DNA of 64,000 nucleotides from Oligoflexia bacterium (GCA_016861345.1 BOLD01000004.1:146177-210176); one strand, 5' to 3'. Counted from the first letter of the stretch, positions 26,420 through 45,256 are shown. Notes: a model not told the origin generated them from the sequence alone. Program-made: numbers and translations.

Positions 26420-26728
26420 ATGGGAGTTACAGAAAAGCTAGGACAACTAGCGGGGAGTGTTCAGCAGGGGGTGAAAGACACGTCGACTTCACTTTTTTCT
26501 CTTGCGGTGAAAGTGTTAACAGGCTTATTGCTTGGTCTAACTTTTGCTATGATTGGCCAGGAAATTTTAGGGTATGGCTTGCTGTCCTTTCTATTCATGA
26601 TGATCGTCGTCACTGCAGTTATCGTTAAATTGCTCAGAAACTGGACGATCGGAGCAGTGCTTGTTTTTGATCTCATCTGTGTTTTAATTGCTATGCTTCT
26701 TCGAATGTACGTGCTTGTTGCGCCCTGA
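26420..26728 (+). CDS. Small integral membrane protein
   Basis: GGAGG lies 6 nt upstream of the ATG at 26420. Three hydrophobic helices are present. Confidence 0.6.
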
Positions 26729-26736
26729 GGTTTAAA

Positions 26737-28029: not shown

Positions 28030-28059
28030 TCAATCTTTGCGACGCATAAAACCAAAAAG

Positions 28060-29751
28060 TCATTGAATACCCACTCCAAAACCCATAAAACGGACGACGG
28101 AGCGATGGTAGAGTGGTTGAATACACCAGTCTTGAAAACTGGAAGGCTCGCAAGGGCCTCGCGAGTTCGAATCTCGCTCGCTCCGCCAATTCTGATTTTC
28201 CTTCCAACCGGACAAACGAGCAAACGGACTTTTCAATTGATATTGAAGAGTTAGCCCATCAAGAGTTGGGTTCGAACATACCTTTTTCAAGTATTCGAGC
28301 CGCTCTTCTCGGTTCATTGAAATGTAGAGTTCTTTCGCGTTGATAGCCAGTTCGAACACTTTTTTGACCGATACCATCGCCTCGTCACTGATCGACAGCG
28401 TGAGGCGTTCGATTTCTGATTCATAGTGTTTGCGATCCTCACGAATGCGGTCAATCTGGCGTCGGTATCCAATTTCATCTAACAAGCCACGTTTGAAATC
28501 GTCATACGCGATGTCTTCTTTGCCTTCGAGTCCGCGAAGCTCAACGCGAAAGCCTTCCATTTGTTTTTTGATCGCAGCCTTTTGTTTGTCGTGTGTTTCG
28601 TTGAGAGCACTAGTGATGTCCTGGGCGAACTCCTCAGAAATGGAAAGCGCCGCGACTGCTGGCTCAAGCTGCGCCCATAGCTTATCTTCTGAGACATAGA
28701 CTTTTTTATCATGAATCTTGCGGGAATTTGAACAACGATAGAGATGATACACTTTCACTTCGCCGGTCGATTTCAAGGTCTTTTCCTTTCTCTCATAAGT
28801 GATTTGTCTGCGACATTCTGGATGGTCGCAGACTAACCAACCACGAAATACGTCATCGCCGTTCATTATCGTTTTGCGCTGGATGGACACGTTGCCATCG
28901 TTGATTGCTTTGACGGCCTTGAGGACTTTCGCAGGGATAATTAACTCGTGCTTGCCTTTGTAGTTTTTCGGATCGCCCGTCAGCTTGAATGAGCCCCAGT
29001 AAAACGAGTTCTTGAGTCGTTTCTCAACGGAAGTGCGATTGTAGGTTTTGATTTGGGCGGTGGGTACGAGGTTGTCTTCAAGGTTTTTCTGTCTAATTAC
29101 ATCGTATGAATGGCCCTGAGCGCGTAGCTCAAACTCACGCTGAACGAGTCGCACGTTTGCTGGGTTTGGGTCCACGATAACAGTAGCTGTTCCTTTGATG
29201 GCGTACCCCGACCTATCGACTTCCTTGTGATGGACGTAACCAAGTGGCGTGTGACGATAGGGGAACCAACCTTGTTCTGCCTTGGTTCGGAATGCGTTTC
29301 TTACTCTGGTTCCATTTTCACGGCTGTAGTTTTCATTGATGACACCGGTAATACCGCGCAAAAGCAGATCAGCATCCGACGAGTGTTTCGAGTATGCCTT
29401 CCCGTCCGCAACGTGGTGAACAATGATTTTATCCTGTCGAATTAAGTCGGTGTTCGCTGATAGGTCCTTTGGATTTCGGGCCTCACGACTCGCGTTGTAA
29501 AATAAAATGTGTTTTGCACCCAGCTTCTTTGCCTGTGCCATTAGCGCGTTATACTTGCTTCGCTTCTCAGAGTCATAAGCGGTTTCGATAATCTCCGCGG
29601 GCGTAATCACAAGCTCAAGGCCATGATCTTCCGCATACCTCGTGATCGCCGCGATTTGCGTTTCAGCCGAAGTATTGTCCTTCTGTCCCGCAGAACTTCT
29701 GCGAACAATCGCTACACATTTTTTGATGGGGTCTTCTTTCCACTTTTCCAT
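28060..29751 (-). CDS. Large serine recombinase (integrase)
   Basis: The N-terminal resolvase catalytic domain (VAIVRRSSAGQKD, catalytic Ser) is followed by a recombinase domain, a zinc ribbon (CDHPECRRQ...YRCSN) and a coiled-coil region. AGGAG lies 7 nt before the ATG at 29751. The last ~43 codons overlap tRNA-Ser and its upstream spacer in antisense. Confidence 0.9.
   Translation of the reverse strand: MEKWKEDPIKKCVAIVRRSSAGQKDNTSAETQIAAITRYAEDHGLELVITPAEIIETAYDSEKRSKYNALMAQAKKLGAKHILFYNASREARNPKDLSANTDLIRQDKIIVHHVADGKAYSKHSSDADLLLRGITGVINENYSRENGTRVRNAFRTKAEQGWFPYRHTPLGYVHHKEVDRSGYAIKGTATVIVDPNPANVRLVQREFELRAQGHSYDVIRQKNLEDNLVPTAQIKTYNRTSVEKRLKNSFYWGSFKLTGDPKNYKGKHELIIPAKVLKAVKAINDGNVSIQRKTIMNGDDVFRGWLVCDHPECRRQITYERKEKTLKSTGEVKVYHLYRCSNSRKIHDKKVYVSEDKLWAQLEPAVAALSISEEFAQDITSALNETHDKQKAAIKKQMEGFRVELRGLEGKEDIAYDDFKRGLLDEIGYRRQIDRIREDRKHYESEIERLTLSISDEAMVSVKKVFELAINAKELYISMNREERLEYLKKVCSNPTLDGLTLQYQLKSPFARLSGWKENQNWRSERDSNSRGPCEPSSFQDWCIQPLYHRSVVRFMGFGVGIQ
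28099..28188 (+). tRNA. tRNA-Ser (anticodon UGA), CCA encoded
   Basis: The cloverleaf was read by hand. The acceptor stem is GGAGCGA/TCGCTCC. The anticodon stem is CCAGT/ACTGG with loop CTTGAAA. The long variable arm is GGCTC-GCAA-GGGCC. The T arm is GCGAG-TTCGAAT-CTCGC, followed by discriminator G and CCA. Confidence 0.93.
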
Positions 29752-29779
29752 TTCAATTCTCCTATTTTAGCAAAAATCC

Positions 29780-30301
29780 TTACTCTTTTCCATTTGTTCC
29801 GAGTTCGAACATGTCTACTTCTCCCTCTGGTTCTAATATCTCTTTCTCTGTTTGAGAGTTCGCGACGACGCTTTTTTCACTTTGCCGAAGCAGTAGCCGG
29901 AACAAATCGACTATTTCGTCAAACTCTCCGCGTGAAAGGCTCAGCACATCGCCGTTGGGGAGTTTATACGTTTTGAATATGGGGGGAGTTTCAGAATCGC
30001 CAGTGGGTTTAGTAATCACTTGTGGCGTGTTCCCTGAGCGAAATGCTGCCGAGTTTTGCGATGGTTCCACAAGTGACGACGGAACAGAATACAAAAAAGG
30101 ATCACCTTTTTTTCCAGAGCCACGGAATGCAATAGAGCCTTGCGCTCGAAGCATACGGATAACGTCGATCTTGTCTTTCCTGCGGCCACTAACAGCCGAA
30201 AGTATCGCTGATTCAGATTGAGGCTTGTTGTTCTGGGAAAGAAACTCGACAATTTTCTGTGCGATCTGATCTTGTCGAGAAGTTTCAGGACTTGAGTTCA
30301 T
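29780..30301 (-). CDS. Winged-helix-like protein upstream of the integrase (possible regulator / directionality factor)
   Basis: The segment KIVEFLSQ...ILSAVSGRRKDKIDVIRMLRAQGSIAFRGSGKKGDPFLYSV is paralogous to ORF 40984-41268. The start is uncertain (ATG 30301 or TTG 30331). Confidence 0.55.
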   Translation of the reverse strand: MNSSPETSRQDQIAQKIVEFLSQNNKPQSESAILSAVSGRRKDKIDVIRMLRAQGSIAFRGSGKKGDPFLYSVPSSLVEPSQNSAAFRSGNTPQVITKPTGDSETPPIFKTYKLPNGDVLSLSRGEFDEIVDLFRLLLRQSEKSVVANSQTEKEILEPEGEVDMFELGTNGKE

Positions 30302-30644
30302 CCTGACCGTCCATTCGAGAAACCAGCGCAATGCGCAGGCGGTTACTCAGTTGGAGTCGGGATGCAAATTTGTGGGGCTATCCTTACTCTGAATTCATGT
30401 CGATCCGTCCACAGCGGGGCTTCCAGGCAGTGGTGAAGCCAAGCACGGTCGATCACTTGCGTCTATTGTATCACAAGCCCAACGCAATCCAAAGTGAATC
30501 ATATTTGACTAATTTAGTTCGGGCTAAAGCCATTCCTGTCTTTGTGATATAGATGTACGGGTGATACGAAATCCATTCAGCGCATCGTCTGGCCGGACTT
30601 TAAGCGCATTCAATGATTCCGCACCCTCGAACATTTGATTGAAG

Positions 30645-30699
30645 CCTCCGCTCGTAGATGGGCGAGTGGCCCATCTACACTTGTCCCTATGAGCGGAGG
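30645..30699 (+). promoter_or_regulatory. Nested inverted repeat that would sequester the SD of ORF 30704
   Basis: The outer arms CCTCCGCTC (30645-30653) and GAGCGGAGG (30691-99) are perfectly complementary. So are the inner arms GTAGATGGGC (30654-63) and GCCCATCTAC (30669-78). The 3' outer arm contains the GGAGG SD 5 nt before the ATG at 30704. Confidence 0.6.
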
Positions 30700-30703
30700 T
30701 TTT

Positions 30704-31843
30704 ATGAAAGACATTAAAAATTATGAGCGTTGGATGACTGCGGCCTGCGAGTATTTAACGCCGACGGAATTCAAAGTGTGGGTCGCTTGGTATGGCGACG
30801 CTCCTGGTTTCAGCGCGGGGGCGACCAGAATTTGTGAAAGGGTCCCAGGCTTACGAACGAACCATGCTCGTGCTGCAATTCGCAATATTGCCAAAAAGAA
30901 ATTCATCAAGGATTCAGGGGCAAAGCGAAAAAATGAGCACGGCAGCCCCACGACGGTTTATGTGCTTGGAAGTTTGGACGAGGTAATCGCCCATAATAAG
31001 TCAGTACCCATTGAAAGCGGACAGCTTTCGGAAGATAGCGGACGAACCTCGATCACGAAGAGGCCGGATACTCCAATCAAAGAGGCCGATGATAAAGAGG
31101 ATAGCGGACGAGTGGCCGTCCTCGTACAGAGAAACAAAGAAGAAACAGGAGAAGAACAGTTAAGGCAAAACACTTCCCCCTCTTTTTCTGAATCTCCTCA
31201 AGCGCCGGAGGGGCTTAGCCAAAAGAAAGAAAAAATCTTCCATCCATTAGGTGATGAAGATGCCCACCTTCGACCCTTTGGCGATATTGGTCAAATGCAG
31301 CATGAATTAGATCAATCCTTTTTAAGGGACACAAACCATATTCGCCTTGGTTCTTTGAAAAAGGACGAACTTGAAAAGGTCGTTGCCGATTTGGAATCGA
31401 CCTTGAGCATGAGGCACTTATTTAATGAATGGGGCGATTCTTGTGGTGAACTTTATCCGAGTGAACAAGTCAAAAATTTAGTAATTCAAAAAATTTTGGA
31501 GAACAGATTTAGAGATAAGAGCGGAGTCTTTTCGATAGGCTCAGAGCTTTACTTCAAAGTAGAAGCTACGTTGAAATCTGCACTCTGGCAGCGGCAGTAT
31601 GTTTCCCACGCTCCTAAGCGTGCATGTTCGCCAGAAGTTTGGAAACGATTGACCCGACTCAGACCAATTTTAGATGCAAAGAATCAAATAGAGGTGGCTA
31701 AGACCGATGAATTTATTTCCGAGATTCTTACTGACGAAGAAAAGCAGTTGGCTGAAATAGAGCTAACAGATTCAGATACACAGTTACTTCGAGAATATGG
31801 CCATCTTATTGATCGGCCTTTTTTAGCGTCCCAAAACTCCTGA
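30704..31843 (+). CDS. Hypothetical protein with an N-terminal HTH/wHTH-like region, acidic linker and unknown C-terminal domain
   Basis: The start was chosen at the ATG with GGAGG upstream. The N-terminus YLTPTEFKVWVAWYG...RAAIRNIAKKKFI looks like the DNA-binding module of replication or regulatory proteins. This is an inference. Confidence 0.6.
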   Translation: MKDIKNYERWMTAACEYLTPTEFKVWVAWYGDAPGFSAGATRICERVPGLRTNHARAAIRNIAKKKFIKDSGAKRKNEHGSPTTVYVLGSLDEVIAHNKSVPIESGQLSEDSGRTSITKRPDTPIKEADDKEDSGRVAVLVQRNKEETGEEQLRQNTSPSFSESPQAPEGLSQKKEKIFHPLGDEDAHLRPFGDIGQMQHELDQSFLRDTNHIRLGSLKKDELEKVVADLESTLSMRHLFNEWGDSCGELYPSEQVKNLVIQKILENRFRDKSGVFSIGSELYFKVEATLKSALWQRQYVSHAPKRACSPEVWKRLTRLRPILDAKNQIEVAKTDEFISEILTDEEKQLAEIELTDSDTQLLREYGHLIDRPFLASQNS

Positions 31844-31989
31844 CAAAGTTTATGCTCTTTCAGGCATACGAATCCATAAGCTCTTTTCAAATCATCTTAT
31901 AGAGCCTCCAAGCGCGTTTCAATTTGATCCACTTGGCCGTGAATATCCGACTCATTTTATCCGATAAGTCCAAGTATCTGGAGGTTCGC

Positions 31990-32409
31990 ATGGCAACAGT
32001 AAATGGAAACGCACTGCTTGGCGGGGTTGGAATCGAAGTACCACAAGGATCACATGTCGAAATTATAGAACGAGTGGACGATGGCCTGGCATCTTTCAGA
32101 GTCACATGGCGTACCCCGAATGGACCCATCACGGGCACCATTACGACAAATCTCCTAGATTTTACAGCCGCCGAAATTGCCGAGCATGACCTTCCGACCG
32201 ATGCTAACGGTTTGCCGCTCTATCGAAACTTGCGGGTGAAATATACCGGCCAGTCAAATGTAGCGGTTACTAACGGTGACTTTCTGTTCGTTCAGGACCT
32301 TTGGTACAATGACGACGCGATGGAATGCCGATGCGTCCATCATGGCAATTCTCGTCCAAACACCGACGGTCGTGTTGTCATCCGTCGTGACTTACTGGAG
32401 CGAGCGTAA
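31990..32409 (+). CDS. Small hypothetical protein (two beta-rich, SH3-like halves)
   Basis: GGAGG lies 5 nt before the ATG at 31990. The product is 139 aa. It sits 23 nt upstream of the HEPN-motif gene. Confidence 0.55.
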   Translation: MATVNGNALLGGVGIEVPQGSHVEIIERVDDGLASFRVTWRTPNGPITGTITTNLLDFTAAEIAEHDLPTDANGLPLYRNLRVKYTGQSNVAVTNGDFLFVQDLWYNDDAMECRCVHHGNSRPNTDGRVVIRRDLLERA

Positions 32410-32432
32410 GTAAAATGTGCTCCTGAGGTATC

Positions 32433-33914
32433 ATGGGACACGAGGGAAACGGACTAGAACATTTAGAAGCAGATTGGCTGTATTATAGCCATGACATATC
32501 AAATTTGTCGGCGATTCCTGGTTCAGACATTATTCCCGCACAACTGACTGTGAAGCGAAACGCTAATTTGACCGTGTCCTTGGAAATATCGGGCACCGAC
32601 AAATACCTGTTTCAAAAAGAACAAGCAAAACAAGTGCGAGTTGGGACCGTAAGCGCTAGTGGCTCCATGTCCGGCGAGGTCAAACACGCAGGCTATAAAG
32701 TTGAACTGATCGGCGTAACAGCGGGACGGAAGACTTCCAATTTTTCCGGTGAGTACACCATCCATGCTTCAGCAAGTTCCGTTCGCATTACTCGAAACGA
32801 ATTGGAGCCAAAAAGTGCAATTATATACGCGGTCGGTTGTCCGAAACTTCTTTTTCATCGGGGGACCTGTCGTGACGTGGAGCCTGGTAAAGTCACACTC
32901 AGCCGAAGGCACGTTGGGGACGCCGATCTGGGGTCAGTTGGCGAAATGTCATTTGATTCTTATGGAGAAAGTCGAAGTTCGGCGACAGACTACCTTTTGA
33001 TTAAGAACAAATATGGAACCGTGATCTTCTCTAAAGGCGAACCGTCGTCAGAAACGGAAGAATATTCCCCATGCTATTTACAGTTCATTGATGGAAATGG
33101 AGTCATTGATCGTGATTTTCGCCGAAGATACTTGGAAGCAGTAAGTTTTGCGCTTGGTAAAAGACTGATTGAAATCGGACACTCGACTTTTTCTGAGGAT
33201 CATCAGCCGATTTGCCAAGAATCTCGCACTCCATACTCACTAAATATCAAAAAGGAAGCCGCGATTTATCCACTTCCACCGGCAGAGAATGTTCTGCATG
33301 GCCAATTCCCCAGCGAAGAAGTCTTTTCTCAAATTGTTGATGGCTTCTTAGACAATTATGAATCCTTGGATCTATCGAATGTCATTTGGCCGTTGTGGAT
33401 CGCTCGGCTCATGCCGCTTGGTACGGAGCTTGTTTCATACTCATCATCTTTGGAATCTCTCGTGACGATGTGGTTTAAGAATAAAGAGCCGCAAAAAAAT
33501 GAATATGTTGATAGTGATTTGTTCAAGAGTATCGTCGCGTCCACACATGAGCAGGTATCAAAAGCGTCGATGACGGACGAACTCAAGGCAACTTTGAGTC
33601 GAAAGATTGAATTGGCAAATCACCTCAGTATTGGGGATAAGAAAAAGCGATTTTTTGAATCATTAGGGTTAGGATTCGGAAAAATCGAGAAGAAAACCAT
33701 CGCTTCGAGGAACAAATACGCGCATGGCGGCTCAGTCAAGGACGCAGACACCCGTGATCTGGTCATCCTCGCCCGTTGCTACGAAGCTCTAATAAATCGG
33801 GCGTTACTTGCCGCAATCGGTTCAAAAGGTAATTACGTGGATTACTCTTCGTATGACTTTCCTGAAAGAAACATCTCGGTCGAGATGGCTGGCACCAACT
33901 TTGATAAAAATTGA
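32433..33914 (+). CDS. HEPN-motif protein (candidate abortive-infection/defence RNase; possibly ApeA-like)
   Basis: The C-terminal helical region contains SRNKYAHGG (R426-x4-H431, nt 33708-33725), which fits the RNxxxH HEPN consensus. About 60 further helical residues follow. The N-terminal ~400 aa are beta-rich and unassigned. Confidence 0.6.
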   Translation: MGHEGNGLEHLEADWLYYSHDISNLSAIPGSDIIPAQLTVKRNANLTVSLEISGTDKYLFQKEQAKQVRVGTVSASGSMSGEVKHAGYKVELIGVTAGRKTSNFSGEYTIHASASSVRITRNELEPKSAIIYAVGCPKLLFHRGTCRDVEPGKVTLSRRHVGDADLGSVGEMSFDSYGESRSSATDYLLIKNKYGTVIFSKGEPSSETEEYSPCYLQFIDGNGVIDRDFRRRYLEAVSFALGKRLIEIGHSTFSEDHQPICQESRTPYSLNIKKEAAIYPLPPAENVLHGQFPSEEVFSQIVDGFLDNYESLDLSNVIWPLWIARLMPLGTELVSYSSSLESLVTMWFKNKEPQKNEYVDSDLFKSIVASTHEQVSKASMTDELKATLSRKIELANHLSIGDKKKRFFESLGLGFGKIEKKTIASRNKYAHGGSVKDADTRDLVILARCYEALINRALLAAIGSKGNYVDYSSYDFPERNISVEMAGTNFDKN

Positions 33915-33918
33915 ATCC

Positions 33919-34434
33919 TCACACTGCTTTGTCTTGGCTTACGTCAATCATCTCGCTGCGAATCTCGCCAACTAACTCCGCCATGTGAATCAGAGTGGCG
34001 GCTATAAATTCCGGTTGGAATAGGTTAACGTCGCCAACGATTTCGAGTAGGAGCTTCACAGTGTTTCGGCTGGTAGGTTTGGGAACAATTCTGATCGGGG
34101 CGCGGTCATTGACGTGCAGATAGAATGCGATTCGGTAAAGTAATGCGCTCGCGTCCGTCTCGGTTGTTTCGCAAACCTCCGCCGCCACCCTAAAGATATT
34201 TGAGTACGTGCTATTGCTCGTCGAAGGGATGCAAATATCAATCGCGTGACTATCCCAAAGAAACGCATACCTGATACCTGTCGGATGAATGTGCTTGGCG
34301 GCTTCAAGGTCAAGCTGGAGATCGCCAAGTGTGTTATCAAGGACGGCTTCAAACGCGCATGGTTTACGTTTGTCCATATATATCAGCCTGTCATTCTTAA
34401 TATTGAGTGAATGTGTACTGACCATTGATGACAC
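33919..34434 (-). CDS. Hypothetical cytoplasmic protein, last gene of the minus-strand operon
   Basis: A 171-aa ORF with no signal peptide. The start is uncertain (34434 overlaps the upstream gene by 38 nt; an alternative Met is at 34377). Confidence 0.45.
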   Translation of the reverse strand: MSSMVSTHSLNIKNDRLIYMDKRKPCAFEAVLDNTLGDLQLDLEAAKHIHPTGIRYAFLWDSHAIDICIPSTSNSTYSNIFRVAAEVCETTETDASALLYRIAFYLHVNDRAPIRIVPKPTSRNTVKLLLEIVGDVNLFQPEFIAATLIHMAELVGEIRSEMIDVSQDKAV

Positions 34435-35470
34435 AAATTTCGCCGTAAACTTTGCCGGTTCCGCCTCCGACCAGGTTTATGTACTTCGATCCAGAATAAC
34501 ACACTGGGGGAAGTTGTGGCGCACTGGCTGCGTCCGGCATCGTAGGGTCAAGGCCCATGAGGTATCGCCGCCAGTTGTAATCGAAGAATTTTGAAGCATC
34601 GACGACGTGGTTAACAAAAAACTTCCAATCTCCCCCTTGTTGCAGCTCTTTTCCGTTTTTGTCATAGGACTGCCAGAGTTGCTCAAACTCAGACCTTGTA
34701 ATTTGACCGAAATTAAATTGCGTTCTTATCAGTTTCGCTTCTGTGGTAAGCGCCGCCATGACTGCTACATCGAGAACCGGATCAAAATAAATGTTCCCAT
34801 TTCGACGCTCAGTGCAAAATTCAAAAGGCGTAGTTCCTGTGGGACAGAATGAAAATCCCCAATCCGCCACGTCGTCATAGCGGGTTAGAAACCAGTTGCC
34901 GTTTCCATCGTTCGTGTAGCTGAAAATCTCGTTGGGCACGAAATCGGCGGAGCTTGCCGGAAAATTCGAGAAGTCTAAGAGAAGTTGTTTCCCGTAGTCT
35001 TGTGGATTGACGGGTTCCGTTTCGTGATCTTCACGGGCATAAAAGCATGAGACATCTCTTTGATAGACGACGTTGCTGTCTTTGTCTTCCCCTAGAGTAA
35101 TCCTGCGAAATTGTCCCGTGCTCGCATCAAAATCGAGATAATAACGATCATCACGATAAGAATAGTAGTTGCTCGATGCCTTAAGTGCCATGCTTGGAAA
35201 ATTTGGCTGTGGAACGCAGTTGACGTTATGCTTGCGGCGCTTTTCCGTTGAGGCTTCATAGTTGGTCAGCGCAATTTGATCCGTCAAGCACGCCTTGGAG
35301 CTTTCTAGCCAATACTGATTGAACTTCTTGAGATCGCCATAGGCATCGCGCTGATAATAAATGCCTTTACAGTCCGCCGCTGTTTGCGTAGCGCTTGATT
35401 CATTTTTTGATTCATCGTTGCACGAGCAAAGAAGAGTTGTGGCGATCAATAAAACGTACCGCCTGTCCAT
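34397..35470 (-). CDS. Putative lipoprotein (unknown function)
   Basis: MDRRYVLLIATTLLCSC lipobox. GAGG lies 5 nt upstream of the ATG at 35470. Multiple Cys residues and an aromatic-rich mature part are present. Confidence 0.65.
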   Translation of the reverse strand: MDRRYVLLIATTLLCSCNDESKNESSATQTAADCKGIYYQRDAYGDLKKFNQYWLESSKACLTDQIALTNYEASTEKRRKHNVNCVPQPNFPSMALKASSNYYSYRDDRYYLDFDASTGQFRRITLGEDKDSNVVYQRDVSCFYAREDHETEPVNPQDYGKQLLLDFSNFPASSADFVPNEIFSYTNDGNGNWFLTRYDDVADWGFSFCPTGTTPFEFCTERRNGNIYFDPVLDVAVMAALTTEAKLIRTQFNFGQITRSEFEQLWQSYDKNGKELQQGGDWKFFVNHVVDASKFFDYNWRRYLMGLDPTMPDAASAPQLPPVCYSGSKYINLVGGGTGKVYGEICVINGQYTFTQY

Positions 35471-35477
35471 ACACACC

Positions 35478-36188
35478 TCATTCCTTCCAAAGAGCTTCGA
35501 CCTCTTTCTTTTTCTTGCGTTTCTTGTCTAGCTCTTCTTTTTCTTTCTTTTGAGAAGCAAGTTGACGCTCTTTTTCTTTCAGCTCTTCAACTCGCTTTTT
35601 TTCTTCATGGGCCTTGTTTTCGGCGATGACTTCTTTTCGTTTTTGGTTCCACCACGTCTCGTATTTTGACGACCCTAGAAGACCTTTTTTTGAATAGATA
35701 ATCGCCGGAGCCATGAAGTCAGTGCGACTTCCATCGTAAAAGACCCAGCCGACTTCCATATTAGGAACCCCGTTAAATGATCCGGCCTTTTTGTCAACAT
35801 AGCCTTGCAGGTTAAGTCCGGTGACTTCCTCAAAACCGCCATCTGCACACTTTTTGCCGTTGGCGATCTTCATACGCCCCTCGGTTCCGACGCCGGTTGT
35901 GCGCAACGTGTAGCTGTTCAGATAAAAAGCTCCACAACCGGATCGTTCACGCACTGTGCCTTCGTCCAAGACAATATCGCCAAGACAGGCGACCGATTTC
36001 GGCCAAAGTGACTCTTGCTTGCGGTAGTCGCCGGTCGGCACCTGAGCCACTGCAAAGTCACAACGTCCGTCTTTTTCGACAACCGCCTTGAGTTTTCCCA
36101 GGTGCGAGTCCAAGTCGTCAGCGTTCGCCAACCCTCCACATAAAATAACAAAAATAAAAATGACGTTATTTCGCAAGATAGTCGTCAT
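35478..36188 (-). CDS. Secreted protein with a Lys/Glu-rich coiled-coil tail
   Basis: Signal peptide NNVIFIFVILCGGLANA. The C-terminus is ...EEKKRVEELKEKERQLASQKKEKEELDKKRKKKKEVE. Confidence 0.65.
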   Translation of the reverse strand: MTTILRNNVIFIFVILCGGLANADDLDSHLGKLKAVVEKDGRCDFAVAQVPTGDYRKQESLWPKSVACLGDIVLDEGTVRERSGCGAFYLNSYTLRTTGVGTEGRMKIANGKKCADGGFEEVTGLNLQGYVDKKAGSFNGVPNMEVGWVFYDGSRTDFMAPAIIYSKKGLLGSSKYETWWNQKRKEVIAENKAHEEKKRVEELKEKERQLASQKKEKEELDKKRKKKKEVEALWKE

Positions 36189-37158
36189 ATTTTTCTGCCT
36201 TTGCTAACTTCAAAACTTCGTTCATATCCACGGTGATCTTAAACAGAACCATGCCCTGATCGTTCTTTGGTTGAGGTTCAATTTTGGCGACATAAAGCAT
36301 GAGATAGCCCCAAACTTTCGCGCCTTCATTTTTATCAATGTGCGTGAGCCAGCGAGGTTTTTTTGATTGAATACTTTCGTCGTCGTTAGCTTCGCGTTGA
36401 GCTAGGTCCTCAAGTTCACCCGCTGAGTCCGGCGCGTTAGGTGTGGGCCGGATGTCGTAAGGTTCAATTTTTTTCCCGATAGCATCGTGCATTTTTGCGG
36501 CTAAGGCCGGAGACACATTCGGTCCCATTGTCTGAAAGAGGTTCAGGAGTTTTTCATTTGGCATCATGAGAAAAGTCGGAGCTTGAGCCGATTGATTGTT
36601 ACCAGTGAATCGAGCCGCTGAGATGCGATTAGTAGAAGTGTCAAGATGAACTGGGTTTCCTGATCGGGCCTGAATGCGGTCTAAGGTCGGAGCGTAAACA
36701 AACGCCGAATAAATTTTCCCAGAGTCTTCTTTGATTTCCGAAAAGAACCAGTCCGCAGGGGCGCGAAATTGTTTGTATGATGAACTTGCGTCGATATGAG
36801 CTTCGAGTAGGTTTGCATTATACTCTGGAACTTTCCATTTGACGGTTTTTTCTAACCGGCCTAACTCGCTGACCTCATCTGGCCTTGTCATGGAAAAGAG
36901 AACACCGAGACCGTTACTTAAACCGTTCAAGACAGAAAATTTTCTGATTTTTTCAGCTTCAACCTTCGGCTTGCCCTTTACGTCCGGCATACGAATGGAA
37001 ATCACATACTCGATAGGGCCGCTATTCCACTGAGTCGGAAATTGCTTGAACCTAACTTGTGGCTCAACGGGTTTCACTGGCTCCGGTATCGGCGGCTCCG
37101 AGGCGCAGCCCGACAATATGAAAGATGCGATTGCGAAAATACGAGTTAGGTTTTTCAT
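36166..37158 (-). CDS. Putative lipoprotein (unknown function)
   Basis: MKNLTRIFAIASFILSGC lipobox. Its start overlaps the stop of the upstream HTH gene (ATGA). Confidence 0.7.
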   Translation of the reverse strand: MKNLTRIFAIASFILSGCASEPPIPEPVKPVEPQVRFKQFPTQWNSGPIEYVISIRMPDVKGKPKVEAEKIRKFSVLNGLSNGLGVLFSMTRPDEVSELGRLEKTVKWKVPEYNANLLEAHIDASSSYKQFRAPADWFFSEIKEDSGKIYSAFVYAPTLDRIQARSGNPVHLDTSTNRISAARFTGNNQSAQAPTFLMMPNEKLLNLFQTMGPNVSPALAAKMHDAIGKKIEPYDIRPTPNAPDSAGELEDLAQREANDDESIQSKKPRWLTHIDKNEGAKVWGYLMLYVAKIEPQPKNDQGMVLFKITVDMNEVLKLAKAEKYDDYLAK

Positions 37159-37649
37159 TTGCTGCTTCCTTTCGGGTCGTCAGTGGTTTCGTCAGCGTCG
37201 GCAATGTCCTCTATCGTTAACTTCACCCACTTTGAAAAAAGTTTTTTTGTGGGGAGTTTGTCGAACTTGGTCGATTGCTGATACCCGAAGAGATAATCAA
37301 GACTCACGCCATAGTGCTTGGCGATTGCGAGCAAATGACCTGGGTCGATTTGTTTTTTGTCGGGCTTCAGATAGCCGGTAAAGGTTGATAAAGGAATCTG
37401 GCAGGCCTTCGCGGCGGATCTCGCAGATTCTCCGTTCTTTTCCATAAGTGATTTTAAGATCGAATGTAGTTTCATACCCGCTATGCTTCGGGTTTCATTA
37501 GAGTTTTCAGAAGGCGGGTTCACGAAGCCGCTCACTATGTCCGACATCTCGTCACGGACCAAACGATTGAGTTCCTCAGAAGCCTTTTCTGTGGCCGTGT
37601 TCGTCGCATTAGCATTTGGTCCCGATACAGGACGATTACGAGAAGTCAT
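37155..37649 (-). CDS. XRE-family HTH regulator with a disordered N-terminal tail
   Basis: LKSLMEKNGESARSAAKACQIPLSTFTGYLKPDKK...LLAIAKHYGVSLDYLFG is a Cro/C1-type HTH. Confidence 0.75.
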   Translation of the reverse strand: MTSRNRPVSGPNANATNTATEKASEELNRLVRDEMSDIVSGFVNPPSENSNETRSIAGMKLHSILKSLMEKNGESARSAAKACQIPLSTFTGYLKPDKKQIDPGHLLAIAKHYGVSLDYLFGYQQSTKFDKLPTKKLFSKWVKLTIEDIADADETTDDPKGSSK

Positions 37650-37813
37650 ACATTCATCTCCAACCGCGACCTAAACAAGAACCTACAGTCTGTCTCAAAC
37701 TGGACTTGCCCGTCGTGGTACAAAGTTCGGTCGCTATGTCTAGCTTTACGGTCGGAACAGTGGCGCTTTAACTGGTAAAGTGACATTTCCGCTGGGTTTG
37801 GTAGACTTTGAGG

Positions 37814-38617
37814 ATGCGACTGTTCCGTTTCAATCCAACAATCAGAGAGGCTAACAAGTATCTTTCCAAGACGGTCGATGACCTTTTGAAAAAACACGGC
37901 GGCGTCTCGAATGAAGACTTTGAACGCGATCTTGTCGCCGCGACCGGCATCGGATGGAAGCAGGTCAAGAATTACAAAAATCATCCAAAGCCAGGCGAAC
38001 GACTCAAAGATAACAGCGTAGTCATAAAGTATATTCGTGAATGTCGAGCGAAGGACACCACTCGGAAAGTGCGCTCTTATGCCTTGGCCATTGGAGGTAT
38101 CGCGGTCGTCTGCATTTTTCTGTATCGTTACGTGACCGCGCCAAGAACTATTGAATCGTTTGCGGTTCACGAAGTCGCTGAGCCGTTGCCGCCAAGCCAC
38201 GATAAAATTGAAACAAGATTGTTCCTTGAGGTTGGCGGTTGGATTTTGCGTCTTGGTCCAATCAAACATTCAAAAGTTCCTCTCGAAAAATTCGTTTGCT
38301 CAAAACTCTCCTCGGTCGGCCAGACAAATTGCTCATTTTCAGAAAGAAGGCCGAACGGCCTTTTTCAAGTCACGTTGCTCATGGACGGCGACTTCGTCAG
38401 GAAATACTCGGTCATGACATTGGACTCTGTTGAGATCGAATCTCTGCGAAAACAGCTTGCTAACCGAGTTGACAGGGAAATCGCATCTGTAGATCCAAAT
38501 CCCTTGTCACAGAAGCAATTCAAGGTTGGCGACGAATCACTTGAAATTCTATCGAACCCCGCAGGGCCAGGTTCACGGCCCATGCTGACCGTTTCAGTGT
38601 CCTTCGCGTCACTTTGA
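37814..38617 (+). CDS. Possible HTH / single-pass membrane protein (coding strand uncertain)
   Basis: The composition is balanced. An HTH-like segment (FERDLVAATGIGWKQVKNYKN) is followed by a basic stretch and then a TM helix (YALAIGGIAVVCIFLY). It is fully overlapped by two minus-strand ORFs that have coupling signals, so this call is tentative. Confidence 0.45.
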   Translation: MRLFRFNPTIREANKYLSKTVDDLLKKHGGVSNEDFERDLVAATGIGWKQVKNYKNHPKPGERLKDNSVVIKYIRECRAKDTTRKVRSYALAIGGIAVVCIFLYRYVTAPRTIESFAVHEVAEPLPPSHDKIETRLFLEVGGWILRLGPIKHSKVPLEKFVCSKLSSVGQTNCSFSERRPNGLFQVTLLMDGDFVRKYSVMTLDSVEIESLRKQLANRVDREIASVDPNPLSQKQFKVGDESLEILSNPAGPGSRPMLTVSVSFASL

Positions 38618-38720
38618 TTTGTCCCTTTTCCATCTGCTTTTGATGACACTGAAAGCGAATGCGCGGCCTCGGTGTTTTCAGGCACTTGCGAGGCTGATTT
38701 TTTCGACCGTTTGGAAGACA

Positions 38721-39347
38721 TTAGCGCCTCCCTTTCAAAATCCTCTCAACGCTCGTTTTCCCAATTTCGAGTGTCCGGCTGATTTCGCGGATACTCTTTC
38801 CGTTGGCCCTGAGGGTCTTCACTTGTTCAACGGTCTCATCTGGCAGGGGCTTACGACCGCATGACCAACCAGTGTCAGCGGCGGTCATCTTTTTTACAGC
38901 GAGCGCGGTTTTGATTCGTTCGCTGATTAGACTTTTTTCGAGTTCGGCGATAGCGCCCAGAATTTGAGTCACGGCACGGCCAACCGGAGTCCCCAAATCA
39001 ATCGACTCACGCAAGGAAATTAAAGTGACCCCGTATCCGTCTAATTCGTGCAGTAGATTGAGCAAGAAGCGGGTATCTCTCGCCAAACGATCCAGAGCAA
39101 AAATAATGACGACCTTGAACTTGCCCATACGAGCATCCTTGACGAGTTGGTCAAGGGCCTTCCGGCGATCCGCTGAGCCAGTGATCCGGTCAACGTACTC
39201 GCCGACGAGCTGAAATTCACGGTTGGTCGCTACGCCACGGATCGGAACCAGTTGATGCTCTGGCTCTTGTTTCAGAAGTGTTGAAACACGGGCATAGGCG
39301 ACTGCCTTCACCTGGTTCACGCTGCCTCCTTGATAAGAAGGCGGCAT
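38721..39347 (-). CDS. Small serine recombinase (resolvase/invertase family)
   Basis: AVAYARVSTLLKQE (catalytic Ser), VIIFALDRLARD, and the C-terminal HTH GKSIREISRTLEIGKTSVERIL. Confidence 0.9.
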   Translation of the reverse strand: MPPSYQGGSVNQVKAVAYARVSTLLKQEPEHQLVPIRGVATNREFQLVGEYVDRITGSADRRKALDQLVKDARMGKFKVVIIFALDRLARDTRFLLNLLHELDGYGVTLISLRESIDLGTPVGRAVTQILGAIAELEKSLISERIKTALAVKKMTAADTGWSCGRKPLPDETVEQVKTLRANGKSIREISRTLEIGKTSVERILKGRR

Positions 39348-39676
39348 GTGATCGTGGGTTTGGTCTGGTTCAGCACCTTTTCAACGTATTCTGCTGAACT
39401 AAGTTCCGCGCATACAGACTTCCACGAAACATTAGTGCGACAGACGCTTTTTAGCACAACGGAGTGAATGGAGTCGACATCTGCGCCATCTTGGATGCGA
39501 GCCATGATTGAGTTTTCAAGTTCAACCAGTTCGGCTTCAGCAAGCTCCAAGCGCTTTTTCTGAGCGTCATGGCTTCGACGCAAGCGCAGGACCTTTTCGA
39601 CCTCTTGGTTTGTTACGGTTGCCCCTTTAAGGGCTAAGCTTCCTTGGGTTCTCATAGGACCTCCGTTGGTTGACAT
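39317..39676 (-). CDS. Hypothetical protein upstream of and overlapping the resolvase
   Basis: A 119-aa ORF with a coiled-coil-like centre (KKRLELAEAELVELENSIMARI). It overlaps the resolvase start by 31 nt. Confidence 0.5.
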   Translation of the reverse strand: MSTNGGPMRTQGSLALKGATVTNQEVEKVLRLRRSHDAQKKRLELAEAELVELENSIMARIQDGADVDSIHSVVLKSVCRTNVSWKSVCAELSSAEYVEKVLNQTKPTITCRLLIKEAA

Positions 39677-39700
39677 TACAAATACAGCTTAACGCAATGC

Positions 39701-39738
39701 GTATTAATAATCAATACTAGGGTATTGAAAATCAATAT
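39701..39738. promoter_or_regulatory. Operator-like array of four alternating GTATTGA-type half-sites in a divergent intergenic region
   Basis: The half-sites are GTATTA (39701), CAATAC (39712), GTATTG (39722) and CAATAT (39733), at ~10-11-bp spacing. The central TCAATAC-TAGG-GTATTGA (39711-39728) has perfect 7-bp arms. Confidence 0.6.
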
Positions 39739-39759
39739 AACTGCCGATAACGTATAGGA

Positions 39760-39966
39760 ATGAGTCAGCCCAAGTTTCGACATCCAAAAGAGATGAGCAG
39801 TCGCAAGGATCGTGTGGCGCTTTCAACCCGCGTCCTAGATAAAACCAAGAGGCTTTTAGAGAAGGCGGCGGAAAAGCATAAAATTTCTCTCTCCGAACTC
39901 TGTTCAAACGTGTTGGACGAGTATGCGGAATGGCTCGAAAAAGAAGATGAGCAAAAGAAGAGGTAG
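39760..39966 (+). CDS. Ribbon-helix-helix (CopG/MetJ-like) protein
   Basis: 68 aa. RVALSTRVLDKTKRLLEKAAEKHKISLSELCSNVLDEY fits the strand-helix-helix layout. The tail is acidic. Confidence 0.65.
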   Translation: MSQPKFRHPKEMSSRKDRVALSTRVLDKTKRLLEKAAEKHKISLSELCSNVLDEYAEWLEKEDEQKKR

Positions 39967-39975
39967 GAAGGCGCG

Positions 39976-40815
39976 ATGTTCAACTTATTGATGTTCAACG
40001 TAGATTGGCCTTCGGGCAGAGTCAAAATCCCGATAGCACGGATGTTTGAGTACACTGAGTCCGAAATAGCCAATTCATTTCGGAACGGAAGCGACCTCTT
40101 GCTTGATCGTCTAATTTCTTTGCCTTGTCTTTTCTGTGTTGAGGGTGTGGCGGACGAAGTAGCTTATGTCGGCCAGATCAATCGAGCACGTGTCGTCGGT
40201 AAAGAAGTATCTCTAGAAGTCAGCTTTGACACTGACATACCGCCTCTCCATAACCGTATGATTCACGCAAATCGCACTGGATTAGACATGCCAGAAGAAT
40301 TCGAGTTTTCGCGGAATCATTGGGCCGTGAAGGACGTGGACCTTTACCGCTTCTTACTCCGAAATGTGCGTCCCCGCCGCCAACGCCCTGTCGTGTTCCA
40401 AATCTCCGAACACGAGAATATCGAACCGACTCTCGTATCAGCAATGATGCCGTTTGATGCGAGTTTCAACGAAGTTTATACGGCTATTCGTGAAGCTACT
40501 GAAAATGTAGGGCTGAAATGTAGAAGAGCCGATGATATTTGGGAAAACCCAGCGATCATCCAAGATGTCGTTTCTCTTATCGACCGCTCCCGTGTCATCG
40601 TTTGCGACTGCACTGGTCGCAATCCGAACGTGTTTTATGAGGCTGGCATTGCGCATACCCTTGGACGGGAAGTAATCCTAATTACTCAGAGTGAGCACGA
40701 CATCCCGTTTGATTTACGTCATCTTCGCTATGTCCGCTATCTCAACAATGGCGAAGGACGACGTGTGCTTGTTGCCGCCCTCCAAAGTAGGATGCAAACG
40801 ATCCTCGGACACTGA
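39976..40815 (+). CDS. Two-domain protein: unknown N-terminal domain plus a nucleoside-2-deoxyribosyltransferase/TIR-like Rossmannoid C-terminal domain
   Basis: AGGAAGG SD, with the start 9 nt after the RHH stop. The C-terminal half is VSAMMPFDASFNEVYTAIREA...RADDI...IIQDVVSLIDRSRVIVCDCTGRNPNVFYEAGIAHTLGREVILI. It shows the ...D-x-T/S-G...N-x-x-x-E-x-G-x-A-x-x-x-G-K/R-x-V pattern with Glu222 (nt 40639-40641). Confidence 0.6.
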   Translation: MFNLLMFNVDWPSGRVKIPIARMFEYTESEIANSFRNGSDLLLDRLISLPCLFCVEGVADEVAYVGQINRARVVGKEVSLEVSFDTDIPPLHNRMIHANRTGLDMPEEFEFSRNHWAVKDVDLYRFLLRNVRPRRQRPVVFQISEHENIEPTLVSAMMPFDASFNEVYTAIREATENVGLKCRRADDIWENPAIIQDVVSLIDRSRVIVCDCTGRNPNVFYEAGIAHTLGREVILITQSEHDIPFDLRHLRYVRYLNNGEGRRVLVAALQSRMQTILGH

Positions 40816-40983
40816 ATCCGGCTAAATAGCCGCCGCTCTGACACTTTAGGCTACCGGAGTTGGGAACCGGCAAATTCGGAACTGGCTGGGAACAACCTTA
40901 CACCCATACATGCACGCGATCAGCGCCACTCAAAAAACTGAATGAACATCGGGAACGACAATCTTCTAGTTAACGGAGGTTGT

Positions 40984-41268
40984 ATGAATCTGGTTAGTTT
41001 CTTTTCTGAGCACGGTGATAATGATCTTTTCTTTCTGGCCCGAAATGAGCGAAAGCCTCGATTGCGGGACATTGTTATTGAGGCCATGCGTTTGCTCGCC
41101 CGTGGGCCGCTGACAAAGCTGGAGCTTCAAAAGCTCGTCAAAATTCGCCGCAAGACATTCATTCGTTTGCTGGCCGGTTTGGTCCAAGCCGGTGTTGTAA
41201 TTCGCACGGGAACCGGCAAGCGCCGCGATCCGTTTCGCTATATGTTGGCTGACCACTATCGCGGCTAA
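40984..41268 (+). CDS. Small winged-helix protein (paralogue of ORF 29780-30301)
   Basis: GGAGG lies 4 nt before the ATG at 40984. LTKLELQKLVKIRRKTFIRLLAGLVQAGVVIRTGTGKRRDPFRYML shares the RRK...G-x-GK-x-x-DPF-x-Y signature with the other ORF. Confidence 0.6.
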   Translation: MNLVSFFSEHGDNDLFFLARNERKPRLRDIVIEAMRLLARGPLTKLELQKLVKIRRKTFIRLLAGLVQAGVVIRTGTGKRRDPFRYMLADHYRG

Positions 41269-41401
41269 TCCACTAACTGAAAACGGCTATCGGGGAAATA
41301 GCCCATATGGGTAGTAAACCCCCGTTGAGTTTTTCCGGTGAAGTCACTATGACCGACTCCCCAAAAATTTTTCTGGAAAAATTCTGGGAAAATAGAGGGT
41401 C

Positions 41402-41462
41402 GGGAACATGAATCGTAGGTTGGAATCAGAAAATGCTCCGATTCCAGCAACTGGGGCATTTT
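41402..41462 (+). repeat. Left copy of an imperfect direct repeat flanking the ImmA cassette
   Basis: It shares the exact 12-mer GGGAACATGAAT (41402-41413) with 43354-43365. Co-linear blocks follow: TGGAA, AGAAAAT, CTCCG, CCAGC, GCATTTT. Confidence 0.7.
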
Positions 41463-42555
41463 ACATCAAAGATAATTGCTCAGGGCTATTGGAGTCAGGA
41501 CTCAATATCAGAAGATCTTTAAGAGATTCAAAATCCTGTAGGTTAAGTCCTAAGTTTTCCGAACATTCTTTTCCAGACAATTCGTTCAAGCAGTTTTCTA
41601 TGATCTTAGGGGGATCGAAAGAAGGCTCTTCGGGCTCATTGCCTCTGTAAGCGTTAAGCAAAATGTTTGCGCGTCGATATGTCGGCTCAGACATGCAGTT
41701 AAGATCGAAAGCCCTTCGAATAAGTGCTGCTAAAGAAACTCCCCAACGTCGCTTCAGTCCGATGTAAGCATCCATGTTAAAGCGCCGAGGACATTCAGCC
41801 AGAAAAGCTTCTCTTGGTAACAGGAATGCGCTCGCAAATCTGTTTGCCTGTCTTTCTAATTCAAAGTCTCCCGCCGTAACATCATGGTGCATGAATAGGT
41901 GGCCAAGCTCGTGAGAGGCATCGAACTTAATTCTGGATGTTGAAGTCTTCGGAACCAGAAAAATTAAAGGTCTGCTTCCGTTCCAGACGGAAAAAGCGTC
42001 TACGCCCTTACAGTCCTCTGGAATGAATGAAACAAGGATGCCTTTGCTCTCCAAAACCTTCATCAGGTTTGGAATCGGACCGAGTCCCATATTCCACGAG
42101 CTTCTCACTCTGCCAGCTAGGCGCTCAATATCTTCATCGCTTCGCACCGTGGAAGGTTGAATAGAGCTAACTTGCTCCGCAGGTAAATCAAACTCTTCTT
42201 CAATCTGATTTATAAGCTCACATTGTATGGTGCCGAGAGCGAGAATTTTACGACGTTCTCTTTGGCTCGTACTTCTTAGACTTCTGAAATGACAAGCCTC
42301 TAAACGAATCACAGATGTCTGCAAAGGCTTACTGAAAAACGCCGGTTTAATACCCAAAGCAAGACTCATGTGCGCAATTGTCTTCGCATCAGGTCTGATG
42401 GTTTTATCTTCGAACTGAGTGATCGAACTGGGGGTCTTCCCAATTTTCTCCGCCAACTCAGCTTTAGTCATACCTCTCATCTCTCTCGCCAATGTTAAGC
42501 GAGTAGATACAAAGTTCTGCGAGATTAGAGATAAATCGAAATGGTTCATACTCAT
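41461..42555 (-). CDS. XRE-HTH / ImmA-IrrE (COG2856) zinc-metallopeptidase fusion protein
   Basis: The N-terminal HTH is LAREMRGMTKAELAEKIGKTPSSITQFEDKTIRP. The central HELGHLFMH is an HExxH motif in the context typical of ImmA/IrrE peptidases. Confidence 0.85.
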   Translation of the reverse strand: MSMNHFDLSLISQNFVSTRLTLAREMRGMTKAELAEKIGKTPSSITQFEDKTIRPDAKTIAHMSLALGIKPAFFSKPLQTSVIRLEACHFRSLRSTSQRERRKILALGTIQCELINQIEEEFDLPAEQVSSIQPSTVRSDEDIERLAGRVRSSWNMGLGPIPNLMKVLESKGILVSFIPEDCKGVDAFSVWNGSRPLIFLVPKTSTSRIKFDASHELGHLFMHHDVTAGDFELERQANRFASAFLLPREAFLAECPRRFNMDAYIGLKRRWGVSLAALIRRAFDLNCMSEPTYRRANILLNAYRGNEPEEPSFDPPKIIENCLNELSGKECSENLGLNLQDFESLKDLLILSPDSNSPEQLSLM

Positions 42556-43232
42556 AGAGTTTCAATCTTAGACTTGTCTTTCTTACGAGTCACCACAAAG
42601 TCAGGAACTTCAACTTCAGGATGCAGTTGTGCTGCTGTATCAGTGGCAAATCCGTCGGCCATAGTTTTCATATAAATCTGATGTGTGCGTTTCCATGATG
42701 AAATTCTACCGTTACTCACTTCGCCAGGAGCACACAGATACACGGCTTCAAGACCCGTTTCAGGATTTCCCAAATGAGCAATAACCCAATTCTTGATAAA
42801 TTCTTGCTCTTGATCTTCTGAATCGAAAATGGACTTACCAGTTTCAACATCTATCAGAAACGGTGTGTTGTTCTCTTCGGCCAACTTGGGAGCAGTGTTG
42901 GAATTGTGAGGGAAGCAACGTGAAATATCTTGAGACGCAAACTTGCCCACCCTGTAAGACGCGAATACGCGATTGTTGATGTGCATTCGAAATGTGAGAC
43001 CGTCGTAAATTTTTACGTCTTGATCCTCAACGTGCACGTTGTCTGCAAAAGACTCTTTATAGTTTTTCTTGGTGTAGAAATGGACGCCGTAACCGAAAAT
43101 GTTGGAGTTATCTCCGTCCTCTTCGTCGTATTTGCTTTGCGCTGTTAAATACGACTTTTGAAGTGCGGCAATAATAGCCGCTTGCTGATGTTCAGTGATA
43201 AGATCGTCCGGGACCTGATTGTTAGCAGACAC
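42552..43232 (-). CDS. Hypothetical protein translationally coupled to the HTH-ImmA gene
   Basis: A GTG start lies 4-5 nt after AGGAGG. The stop overlaps the downstream start (ATGA). The product is 226 aa with no motif I can name. Confidence 0.65.
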   Translation of the reverse strand: MSANNQVPDDLITEHQQAAIIAALQKSYLTAQSKYDEEDGDNSNIFGYGVHFYTKKNYKESFADNVHVEDQDVKIYDGLTFRMHINNRVFASYRVGKFASQDISRCFPHNSNTAPKLAEENNTPFLIDVETGKSIFDSEDQEQEFIKNWVIAHLGNPETGLEAVYLCAPGEVSNGRISSWKRTHQIYMKTMADGFATDTAAQLHPEVEVPDFVVTRKKDKSKIETL

Positions 43233-43353
43233 TTTCCCTCCTGCCGAAGTTATTATTTCATCGTTAATAATTAAGTGAAATTGTCATTCAATCAAGAATT
43301 TTTTAGTGAAATGATCGAAATAATTATTGATATTAAGCGTCATGGTGATGTTT

Positions 43354-43420
43354 GGGAACATGAATGACGAGCTGGAACTAGAAAATCTCCGGCAAAAGAC
43401 ACCAGCGGAACAAGCATTTT
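43354..43420 (+). repeat. Right copy of the imperfect direct repeat flanking the ImmA cassette
   Basis: See 41402-41462. It has the same 12-mer and the same order of shared blocks, with one 1-nt and one ~6-nt indel. Confidence 0.7.
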
Positions 43421-43580
43421 CAAAAAAAGGGGAACAAGAATAATTTTGAACAGATCCAGCAGCTTGACGTTCACGAAGCCCAAGAAATCGCTTCTGTTCT
43501 GAATTCGGCGACTTCTCTCCGCCACTTTGGGCTAAAGACCTTTCGTCGACTTTGCCTGAATTTTAAGCCACAATCTTTAA

Positions 43581-44972: not shown

Positions 44973-45256
44973 TGAACTTCGGACTCCCAATCTTGATCGT
45001 GCCCATGGAGCAAATCCTCTATATATTTTGCATCTGTAATTAATTTATCCAACGTTGCATTTACGTTTCCGCTTGGGTTGTAAAGCAGGTATCTCTGCAT
45101 TTCCCTAATCTTATTGTTGATGCTTTGATCATTCAGAGGGGCAAGCTCCTGTCGCAGGTGACTGAGATATCCATTTGCTTTGCGCATGAAATCTCCGTAA
45201 TCAAGTTCGAATGTTGTTGAAACGTCATGTACGAATTTTTCTGTATTTAAATTCAT
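44969..45256 (-). CDS. Small hypothetical protein
   Basis: A 95-aa ORF co-directional with rluD. Its end overlaps the fumC stop by 4 nt. Confidence 0.45.

Follow-up and report, generated by a model that had tools for sequence, protein, structure and literature searches.

How did fumC come to lie 15.4 kb beyond the tRNA-Ser(TGA) gene that adjoins serS, which enzyme opened that distance, and what became of the enzyme's own gene in the process? These questions are raised by a 64,000-nt stretch of an Oligoflexia bacterium genome (GCA_016861345.1, BOLD01000004.1:146177-210176; hereafter the window, with positions counted from its first letter), in which the original prediction, made from the sequence alone, had seen an integrative island between the two core genes. 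We establish here that this island is real and that its ends are exact. We further conclude that it is very probably a 15,336-bp element placed at the CCA end of tRNA-Ser(TGA), most likely by its own large serine recombinase (LSR), whose gene would contain the attachment site of the free element (attP).

An empty site is not found among the 40 nearest reference genomes, all of which belong to other genera with serS and fumC far apart, and it was therefore sought in metagenome contigs. To this end, contigs of public sequencing runs containing this DNA were aligned to positions 26000-45900 of the window, the junctions being examined in assembled contigs and not in reads. An empty serS-tRNA-fumC allele is present in two runs, from two studies other than the probable source study. 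In run X4 (activated sludge), a 15,888-nt contig covers 26000-28180 and then resumes at 43517-45900, and in run X5 (a bioreactor, from a third study), a 559-nt contig has the same joint of 28180 to 43517 with 0-1 differences. Each of these contigs omits 15,336 bases, with eight letters at the joint that fit both sides. Runs X2 and X3 carry the island; they belong to the probable source study and hence are not independent.

The island accordingly spans 28189-43524 or, equivalently, 28181-43516, and is bounded by an 8-bp direct repeat, CTCCGCCA, one copy of which forms the tRNA gene's 3' end. The crossover falls inside the last 8 nt of tRNA-Ser(TGA), the sole tRNA gene of the window; these nucleotides are the same in both repeats, and insertion leaves the tRNA sequence intact. 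The right-hand copy is the very 8-mer that the original prediction had flagged at 43517-43524, and the comparison with an empty allele that it had proposed for defining the attachment (att) ends came out positive in the X4 and X5 contigs, which fixes the right boundary. Two further observations concern this region. The X4 empty-site strain differs from the window at 6 of 2,181 letters on the serS side and at 95 of 2,384 on the fumC side, with divergence shifting abruptly at the att site, as though the flanking DNA had been swapped at that point. Four copies of the 9-mer TCTCCGCCA are present in the window, at 15526 on the minus strand and at 17318, 42447 and 43516 (~0.5 expected at equal base frequencies), of which the last alone is part of the att site.

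The tetranucleotide usage of the island is clearly foreign, its distance to the flanks being 0.212 as against at most 0.080 for every other segment. The predicted shift in composition stands in this respect, although not in the magnitude first given for G+C (45-50% against 38%), which is 0.469 in the island, 0.444 in the flanks and 0.435-0.452 in other 15.3-kb segments. Likewise, the core context of serS and fumC holds at the level of the strain, whereas in other genera of the family the two genes are not neighbors. Taken purely as a genomic island, the locus is ordinary. The evidence supports amending the island reading to one with a modest shift in G+C, a strain-level context and an integrase of the serine type whose gene spans the attachment site.

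The integrase, its tRNA targets and the detached tail

Judged by its sequence and by the structural model of a homologue, the 563-residue enzyme that had been recognized next to the tRNA is a large serine recombinase, with Resolvase and Recombinase domains and a match to the PHROG 95 integrase family (6.6e-47). A single-sequence search of the PDB with the LSR gave no match; a profile of its clade succeeded, retrieving the A118/LI integrase (4KIS, 1.3e-9, across the C-terminal domains, LI residues 73-317) and SPbeta SprA (9DXH, 2e-9, nearly full length). Among 31 homologues the catalytic Ser19 and the associated Arg17, Arg89 and Arg92 are invariant, as are the ribbon cysteines Cys308, Cys313 and Cys340. 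The AlphaFold model of the homologue P0036, with a predicted local distance difference test (pLDDT) score of 85.3, comprises a catalytic domain, a recombinase domain and a zinc ribbon with a coiled coil; it further shows a beta-ribbon, a long helical hairpin and a closing beta-hairpin, and the folds it matches best are those of the SPbeta, Bxb1, phiC31 and LI integrases (9DXD, 9IU2, 9RAH, 4KIS). In the window, the LSR open reading frame (ORF) overruns the edge of the island. It is native up to the Trp encoded by the antisense of CCA (28186-28188), reads through the whole tRNA gene and stops in the spacer between serS and the tRNA, its last 41 residues deriving from tRNA and spacer.

This arrangement characterizes a clade. 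The LSR has ~95 homologues of 36-87% identity, mainly on metagenome contigs of Bdellovibrio-like bacteria, P0002 being 87% identical; within the order, 64 of 384 genomes and 42 of 121 genera have it, a patchy distribution such as is expected for a mobile gene. The fetched loci contain 49 distinct full-length LSR genes, and 35 of the 44 that have complete 3' ends terminate inside a tRNA gene read in antisense (Glu 13, Ser 10, Arg 4, Leu 4, and Asp, Met, Asn and Pro 1 each), with several of the other tails among the 44 still looking tRNA-derived. The LSR clade thus sits at tRNA 3' ends almost without exception, and in every tRNA-ended member a Trp is conserved whose codon, TGG, is the antisense of CCA. 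On the LSR tree, enzymes with the same target tRNA tend to group: 18 changes are required, the mean over shuffles being 29.1 and none of 200 shuffles reaching so low a count. The window LSR falls in a well-supported clade of 11, of which four are at tRNA-Ser and one at tRNA-Asp.

Two further sets of loci may be recorded beside these. Four predicted viral contigs of 31-47 kb from IMG/VR (L119-L122) carry LSR relatives of 37-40% identity, one of them at tRNA-Val(GAC) and three ending in a different, tRNA-free tail. In G054:C1 (L036/L047, ~1,524,476-1,535,200), a homologous integrase ends in tRNA-Glu(TTC), and a 9-nt copy of the core lies 10,640 bp away.

The native end of the integrase is found at the other side of the island. 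The ~50 nt to the left of the right core (43471-43516) continue the integrase frame, which can be traced from 28189 across the core and on through 43516-43471; on the minus strand, their translation in that frame is the Trp, RREVAEFRTEAISWAS and a stop. This P arm is ~80% conserved at seven places in six other genomes, and in all seven copies it is followed by TCTCCGCCA and then by unrelated sequence. Its conservation is of the coding type: pairwise differences among the seven copies number 40, 36 and 114 at the first, second and third codon positions, the stop falls at the same codon in all of them (with one TAA in place of TGA), and divergence is 21% inside the tail as against 61% just past the stop. 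As the conserved frame continues across the core into the P arm, we conclude that attP very probably lies inside the integrase gene, in which case integration would swap a native 16-residue tail for 41 tRNA-encoded residues.

The tail is also seen in related loci. The homologues P0014 and P0036 terminate in the same tail as the right-end arm, and in P0019 the frame crosses a tRNA-like stretch before it arrives there. G005:C315 has the right-end arm linked via the core to a 3' fragment of the integrase. In G263:C14 (L046/L055), a nearly full-length integrase gene terminates in the tail, followed by GGAAC/GTTCC repeats as they occur before the arm in the window. This 13.9-kb contig is a tandem array: it begins with a P arm and core at 132, the element after that arm holds the nearly full integrase with its native tail (to 9786), and the last unit is decayed, measures 4 kb and has its integrase fragment fused into tRNA-Ser(CGA) at 13762-13852. 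Sub-clades with other targets (L065, L062, P0039) have analogous tails with a common xFR(T/N) motif, and several tails end in small residues (-AA, -AS, -SA), reminiscent of degradation tags. As to the nature of the arm itself, a tRNA fragment or a known RNA was considered and rejected, as Rfam has no match there and no more than 7 of 30 positions agree with the tRNA arm.

Hence, we propose that recombination would occur within the 8-bp core CTCCGCCA, which the element carries (attP) in common with the end of the tRNA (attB). The enzyme of the circular or tandem form would end, past the Trp of the antisense CCA, in the conserved 16-residue tail; in the integrated form, the tail codons would be stranded 15 kb off at the right end, and the enzyme would end in 41 antisense residues of tRNA and spacer. 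One challenge to a role for the tail is that the right-end arm may be conserved as a DNA half-site only, the peptide being without function and the overlap a matter of compactness. The half-sites of the LI, Bxb1 and phiC31 enzymes are indeed sequence-specific, with ~20-25 bp each. Confidence in the modelled tail is low, and some sub-clades seem to have very short tails, that at the candidate right end in G054 comprising just four residues. However, the conservation extends ~50 nt from the core, further than a half-site, and ends exactly at the stop codon; moreover, changes are concentrated at third positions, TAA replaces TGA at the same codon in one copy, and sub-clades at different tRNAs share the peptide motif. 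We therefore regard a purely DNA-level explanation as doubtful, though by no means negligible.

A locus without an integrase may be noted here in its own right. In L013 (G030:C97, 4380-9921), a sequence of ~150 bp after tRNA-Ser(TGA) recurs at a distance of 5.3 kb, past a conserved P arm. What lies between the repeats is without an integrase and encodes a TetR protein, a CTP-transferase/CoaE protein, an MFS transporter, an IstB fragment and one unknown protein. A repeat of this length is at odds with a simple product of a serine integrase, and the idea that three of the ORFs form a trio of tyrosine recombinases was rejected, these being the CTP-transferase/CoaE protein, the transporter and the unknown protein.

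Insertion, persistence and decay

Several observations weigh against the view that the island was inserted by its own LSR through an attP site within the integrase gene and that the tail has a role. A circular (attP) junction of the island was not seen in the assembled contigs, and the junctions in G005:C315 and G263:C14, considered as candidates for excised attP circles, were rejected, both being joints of tandem arrays in chromosomal contigs. The G263 integrase gene, with its native tail, is itself without its first ~35 codons in frame. A scan for dyad symmetry at the att site found no centre with more than 10 of 24 matches, the segment of identity being 8 bp and the crossover dinucleotide not located. 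The tail is modelled as a helix at a pLDDT of only ~41, giving no structural hint of a role. Several genomes retain the P arm without any LSR, so decay is common, and no transfer genes were found among the island ORFs.

Part of this evidence would suit a grounded remnant, that is, a single insertion whose tail-swapped integrase is non-functional and whose presence or absence reflects old lineage sorting. The missing circular junction in assembled contigs is in keeping with it, as are the want of transfer, packaging or clear replication genes and the decay seen in relatives, which includes LSR C-terminal fragments beside tRNAs and integrase-less segments as well as orphan P arms. Set against this, the LSR ORF is intact with its catalytic residues invariant, the boundaries are base-exact, and the 559 nt of the X5 empty-site contig show identity or near-identity, which argues for a recent event. 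On balance, we consider such a remnant unlikely.

That the small resolvase/invertase at 38721-39347, and not the LSR, mobilizes the island is highly improbable: it is an intact serine recombinase, but it has neither the recombinase domain nor the zinc ribbon on which serine integrases rely, lies in mid-island and is common to few related elements, whereas the LSR stands at a tRNA junction in 35 of 44 cases. Finally, an empty site created by misassembly or by a spontaneous microhomology deletion, for which one could invoke the use of contig data and the 8-bp repeat at both ends, deserves hardly any credence, as eight bases are far below the 31-letter index words of the runs, the same joint recurs in runs from two studies, one of the contigs being 15.9 kb long and having strain-specific differences, and it falls on the att core that relatives had independently predicted.

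The evidence as a whole thus points strongly to the LSR as the catalyst of the insertion. We further infer that the element may still excise and that the tail swap may alter the activity, direction or stability of the enzyme. More tentatively, and with less than even confidence, we suggest that the LSR clade of Bdellovibrio-like bacteria may be dedicated to tRNA CCA ends, with the tail, which would exist solely in the circular or tandem state, acting as an integration-state switch of direction, partner binding or stability.

Partners, repeats and cargo

The features of the locus are collected in Table 1. The 183-residue protein was detected by tblastn in 16 related loci and, in those checked, is encoded just upstream of the integrase gene; it is the leading candidate for a regulator or a directionality factor. 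Together with the LSR it would constitute the conserved module of the element, the rest being variable cargo, in this island chiefly genes of conflict type (the RosmerTA-type pair and the TIR-like and HEPN proteins) and the lipoprotein operon. The 108-residue protein matches the same stretches as the 183-residue one in L071, L023 and L024, and these two, along with the pair comprising the small recombinase and its partner, are the only cargo that recurs in related loci. This second recombinase, of the resolvase/invertase type, had been correctly picked out from the sequence.

The GGAAC repeats next to the P arm number 4 in 80 nt, with 0.12 expected per 110 nt, and circularization would place them immediately past the end of the integrase gene. 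Six related loci have equivalent repeats adjoining the conserved arm, and in L046 such repeats lie downstream of the integrase stop. At 41395-41475 there is a copy of the region with 74% identity, which forms with it a set of direct repeats bracketing the RosmerTA-type pair and suggests that this pair was acquired, or could drop out, as a cassette. In that pair, the protein with helix-turn-helix (HTH) and M78 domains fits the RmrA antitoxin of the RosmerTA defence system, whereas the overlapping upstream gene for a 226-residue protein fits no RmrT model, nor did any family match it.

The original prediction had envisaged ~20 ORFs between the core genes and none of them housekeeping, which family searches bear out; 12 of the ~20 island ORFs are without any family in PADLOC, PHROGs, NCBIfam and Pfam, and scans with Pfam, PHROG and NCBIfam reveal no capsid, terminase, relaxase or secretion genes among them. 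Its three candidate conflict modules each receive some support, from the HEPN_Apea, TIR-like and RmrA matches respectively, with the HEPN protein drawing no match from PADLOC. Its count of at least six HTH, winged-HTH or ribbon-helix-helix proteins is sustained in part, four HTH-type domains being supported by families (two of them above the Pfam threshold) and the other winged-HTH and ribbon-helix-helix cases weak. The secreted-protein operon is also borne out by the signal and lipobox sequences visible in the translations, and apart from the XRE-type regulator none of the members of 33919-37649 matched a family. A 1,649-nt contig of X5 matches this operon at 35857-37108 with 120 differences over 1,252 nt; the X5 strain being without the island, relatives of the lipoprotein operon must circulate apart from it. 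The 379-residue protein, for which Pfam, PHROG and NCBIfam give no match, may resemble HTH_36 or replication-initiator-like proteins, a likeness we offer as a lead only. Two long ORFs, at 37646-38269 on the minus and 37808-38617 on the plus strand, overlap on opposite strands, and neither has a family match.

Table 1. Features of the island and its chromosomal flanks, in window coordinates
Feature	Position	Strand	Evidence or remark
serS, left chromosomal flank	26737-28029	+	430-residue ORF; 64-72% DNA identity to serS across 40 relatives
LSR integrase, integrated form, 563 residues	28060-29751	-	PF00239 1.2e-15, PF07508 1.6e-5
tRNA-Ser(TGA), integration target	28099-28188	+	ARAGORN; Rfam tRNA 62.3 bits
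attL core CTCCGCCA	28181-28188	+	joint of 28180 to 43517, 8 letters compatible with either side
183-residue winged-helix protein	29780-30331	-	directly upstream of integrase; weak winged-helix signal
379-residue protein, N-terminal winged helix	30704-31843	+	protein atlas feature score 0.96 to HTH_36 clusters
161-residue unknown protein and 493-residue HEPN protein	31924-33914	+	HEPN C-terminal, Apea-like
493-residue protein, Apea-like HEPN	32433-33914	+	PF18739 2.2e-5; 25.3 bits, cut-off 24.4
XRE-type regulator, lipoprotein/secreted operon and 171-residue protein	33919-37649	-	see parts
Two lipoproteins and one secreted protein	34397-37158	-	signal and lipobox N-termini in translations
XRE-type HTH regulator	37155-37649	-	PHROG 8 transcriptional regulator 6e-10
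Small serine recombinase, resolvase/invertase, 208 residues	38721-39347	-	PF00239 4.9e-34, HTH_7; PHROG 125 DNA invertase 1.2e-39
Small recombinase and 119-residue upstream partner	38721-39676	-	same pair in related element L049
68-residue possible ribbon-helix-helix protein and 279-residue TIR-like protein	39760-40815	+	ribbon-helix-helix weak: NikA-like 0.006
279-residue protein, C-terminal TIR-like domain	39976-40815	+	PADLOC TIR effector 9.4e-9; PHROG 3634 1.8e-18
108-residue winged-helix protein	40942-41268	+	sub-threshold Pfam winged HTH; related to N-terminal part of 183-residue protein
RosmerTA-type pair	41461-43232	-	toxin candidate 42552-43232 overlaps RmrA by 4 nt
RmrA antitoxin, HTH and M78 peptidase	41461-42555	-	PADLOC RmrA 1.7e-88; Peptidase_M78 6e-21; HTH_3
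226-residue candidate toxin	42552-43232	-	two homologues among 5.8 billion proteins
Four GGAAC repeats (43355, 43374, 43407, 43431)	43347-43440	+	densest GGAAC cluster of the window
P arm, conserved 16-residue tail	43471-43524	-	conserved in 7 loci of 6 genomes
attR core CTCCGCCA	43517-43524	+	sequence, and joint in empty-site contigs
fumC, right chromosomal flank	43581-44972	+	Lyase_1 1.6e-111, FumaraseC_C; adjoins tRNA in empty-site contigs

Precedents and significance

The window LSR shares its domain architecture (catalytic domain, recombinase domain and zinc ribbon with inserted coiled coil) with SPbeta SprA, Bxb1, phiC31 and A118/LI, to which it is remote (15-18% identity in fold alignments). 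Its clade differs from these phage-type LSRs in targeting tRNA CCA ends and in having the attP core within its own coding sequence. Serine integrases have been described as targeting protein-coding genes or intergenic sites, with tRNA sites the province of tyrosine integrases (PMC5357655, PMC8092301), and the accessible part of the large serine-recombinase survey does not contain the word tRNA (PMC10083194). Among the island ORFs, Pfam and PHROG revealed neither the capsid and terminase genes of prophages nor the type IV secretion and relaxase genes of integrative and conjugative or integrative and mobilizable elements.

By analogy of gene layout, the closest precedent for an attP within the integrase gene is the myxophage Mx8. 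Its integrase belongs to the tyrosine recombinases, which have another fold and mechanism, and layout is all that the window LSR shares with it. According to the review PMC6070905, which cites Tojo 1996 and Magrini 1999, the Mx8 attP lies within int (IntP/IntX), and integration yields a new 3' end with altered properties and not inactivation. The streptococcal element IME_Spy2096_SNF2 has been mentioned in passing as having its recombination site within a serine integrase gene (PMC5357655), its target being snf2, a conjugation gene of an integrative and conjugative element, and not a tRNA, and no conserved detached tail being described. A further parallel is offered by archaeal integrases of the SSV type. 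The target of the SSV1-type integrases is a tRNA gene; these are again tyrosine recombinases, and integration splits the gene into two large parts instead of swapping a short tail. In SSV-type integrases generally, the att site lies inside the int gene, which is altered by integration (PMC5861418). Our search of the literature found no paper describing the attP-in-gene design in a serine integrase that uses tRNA sites.

For inserting DNA irreversibly and without cofactors, serine integrases are the tools of choice, and the control of their direction is an active question. A natural clade positioned at the near-universal CCA end of tRNAs would be a source of new site specificities, and a protein that differs between the free and the integrated state would offer a testable, built-in sensor of that state. 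If true, the proposed tail switch would add a layer of directionality control beyond the separate recombination directionality factors of the characterized enzymes. More generally, the island illustrates the exchange of defence-type cargo at tRNA sites among predatory bacteria.

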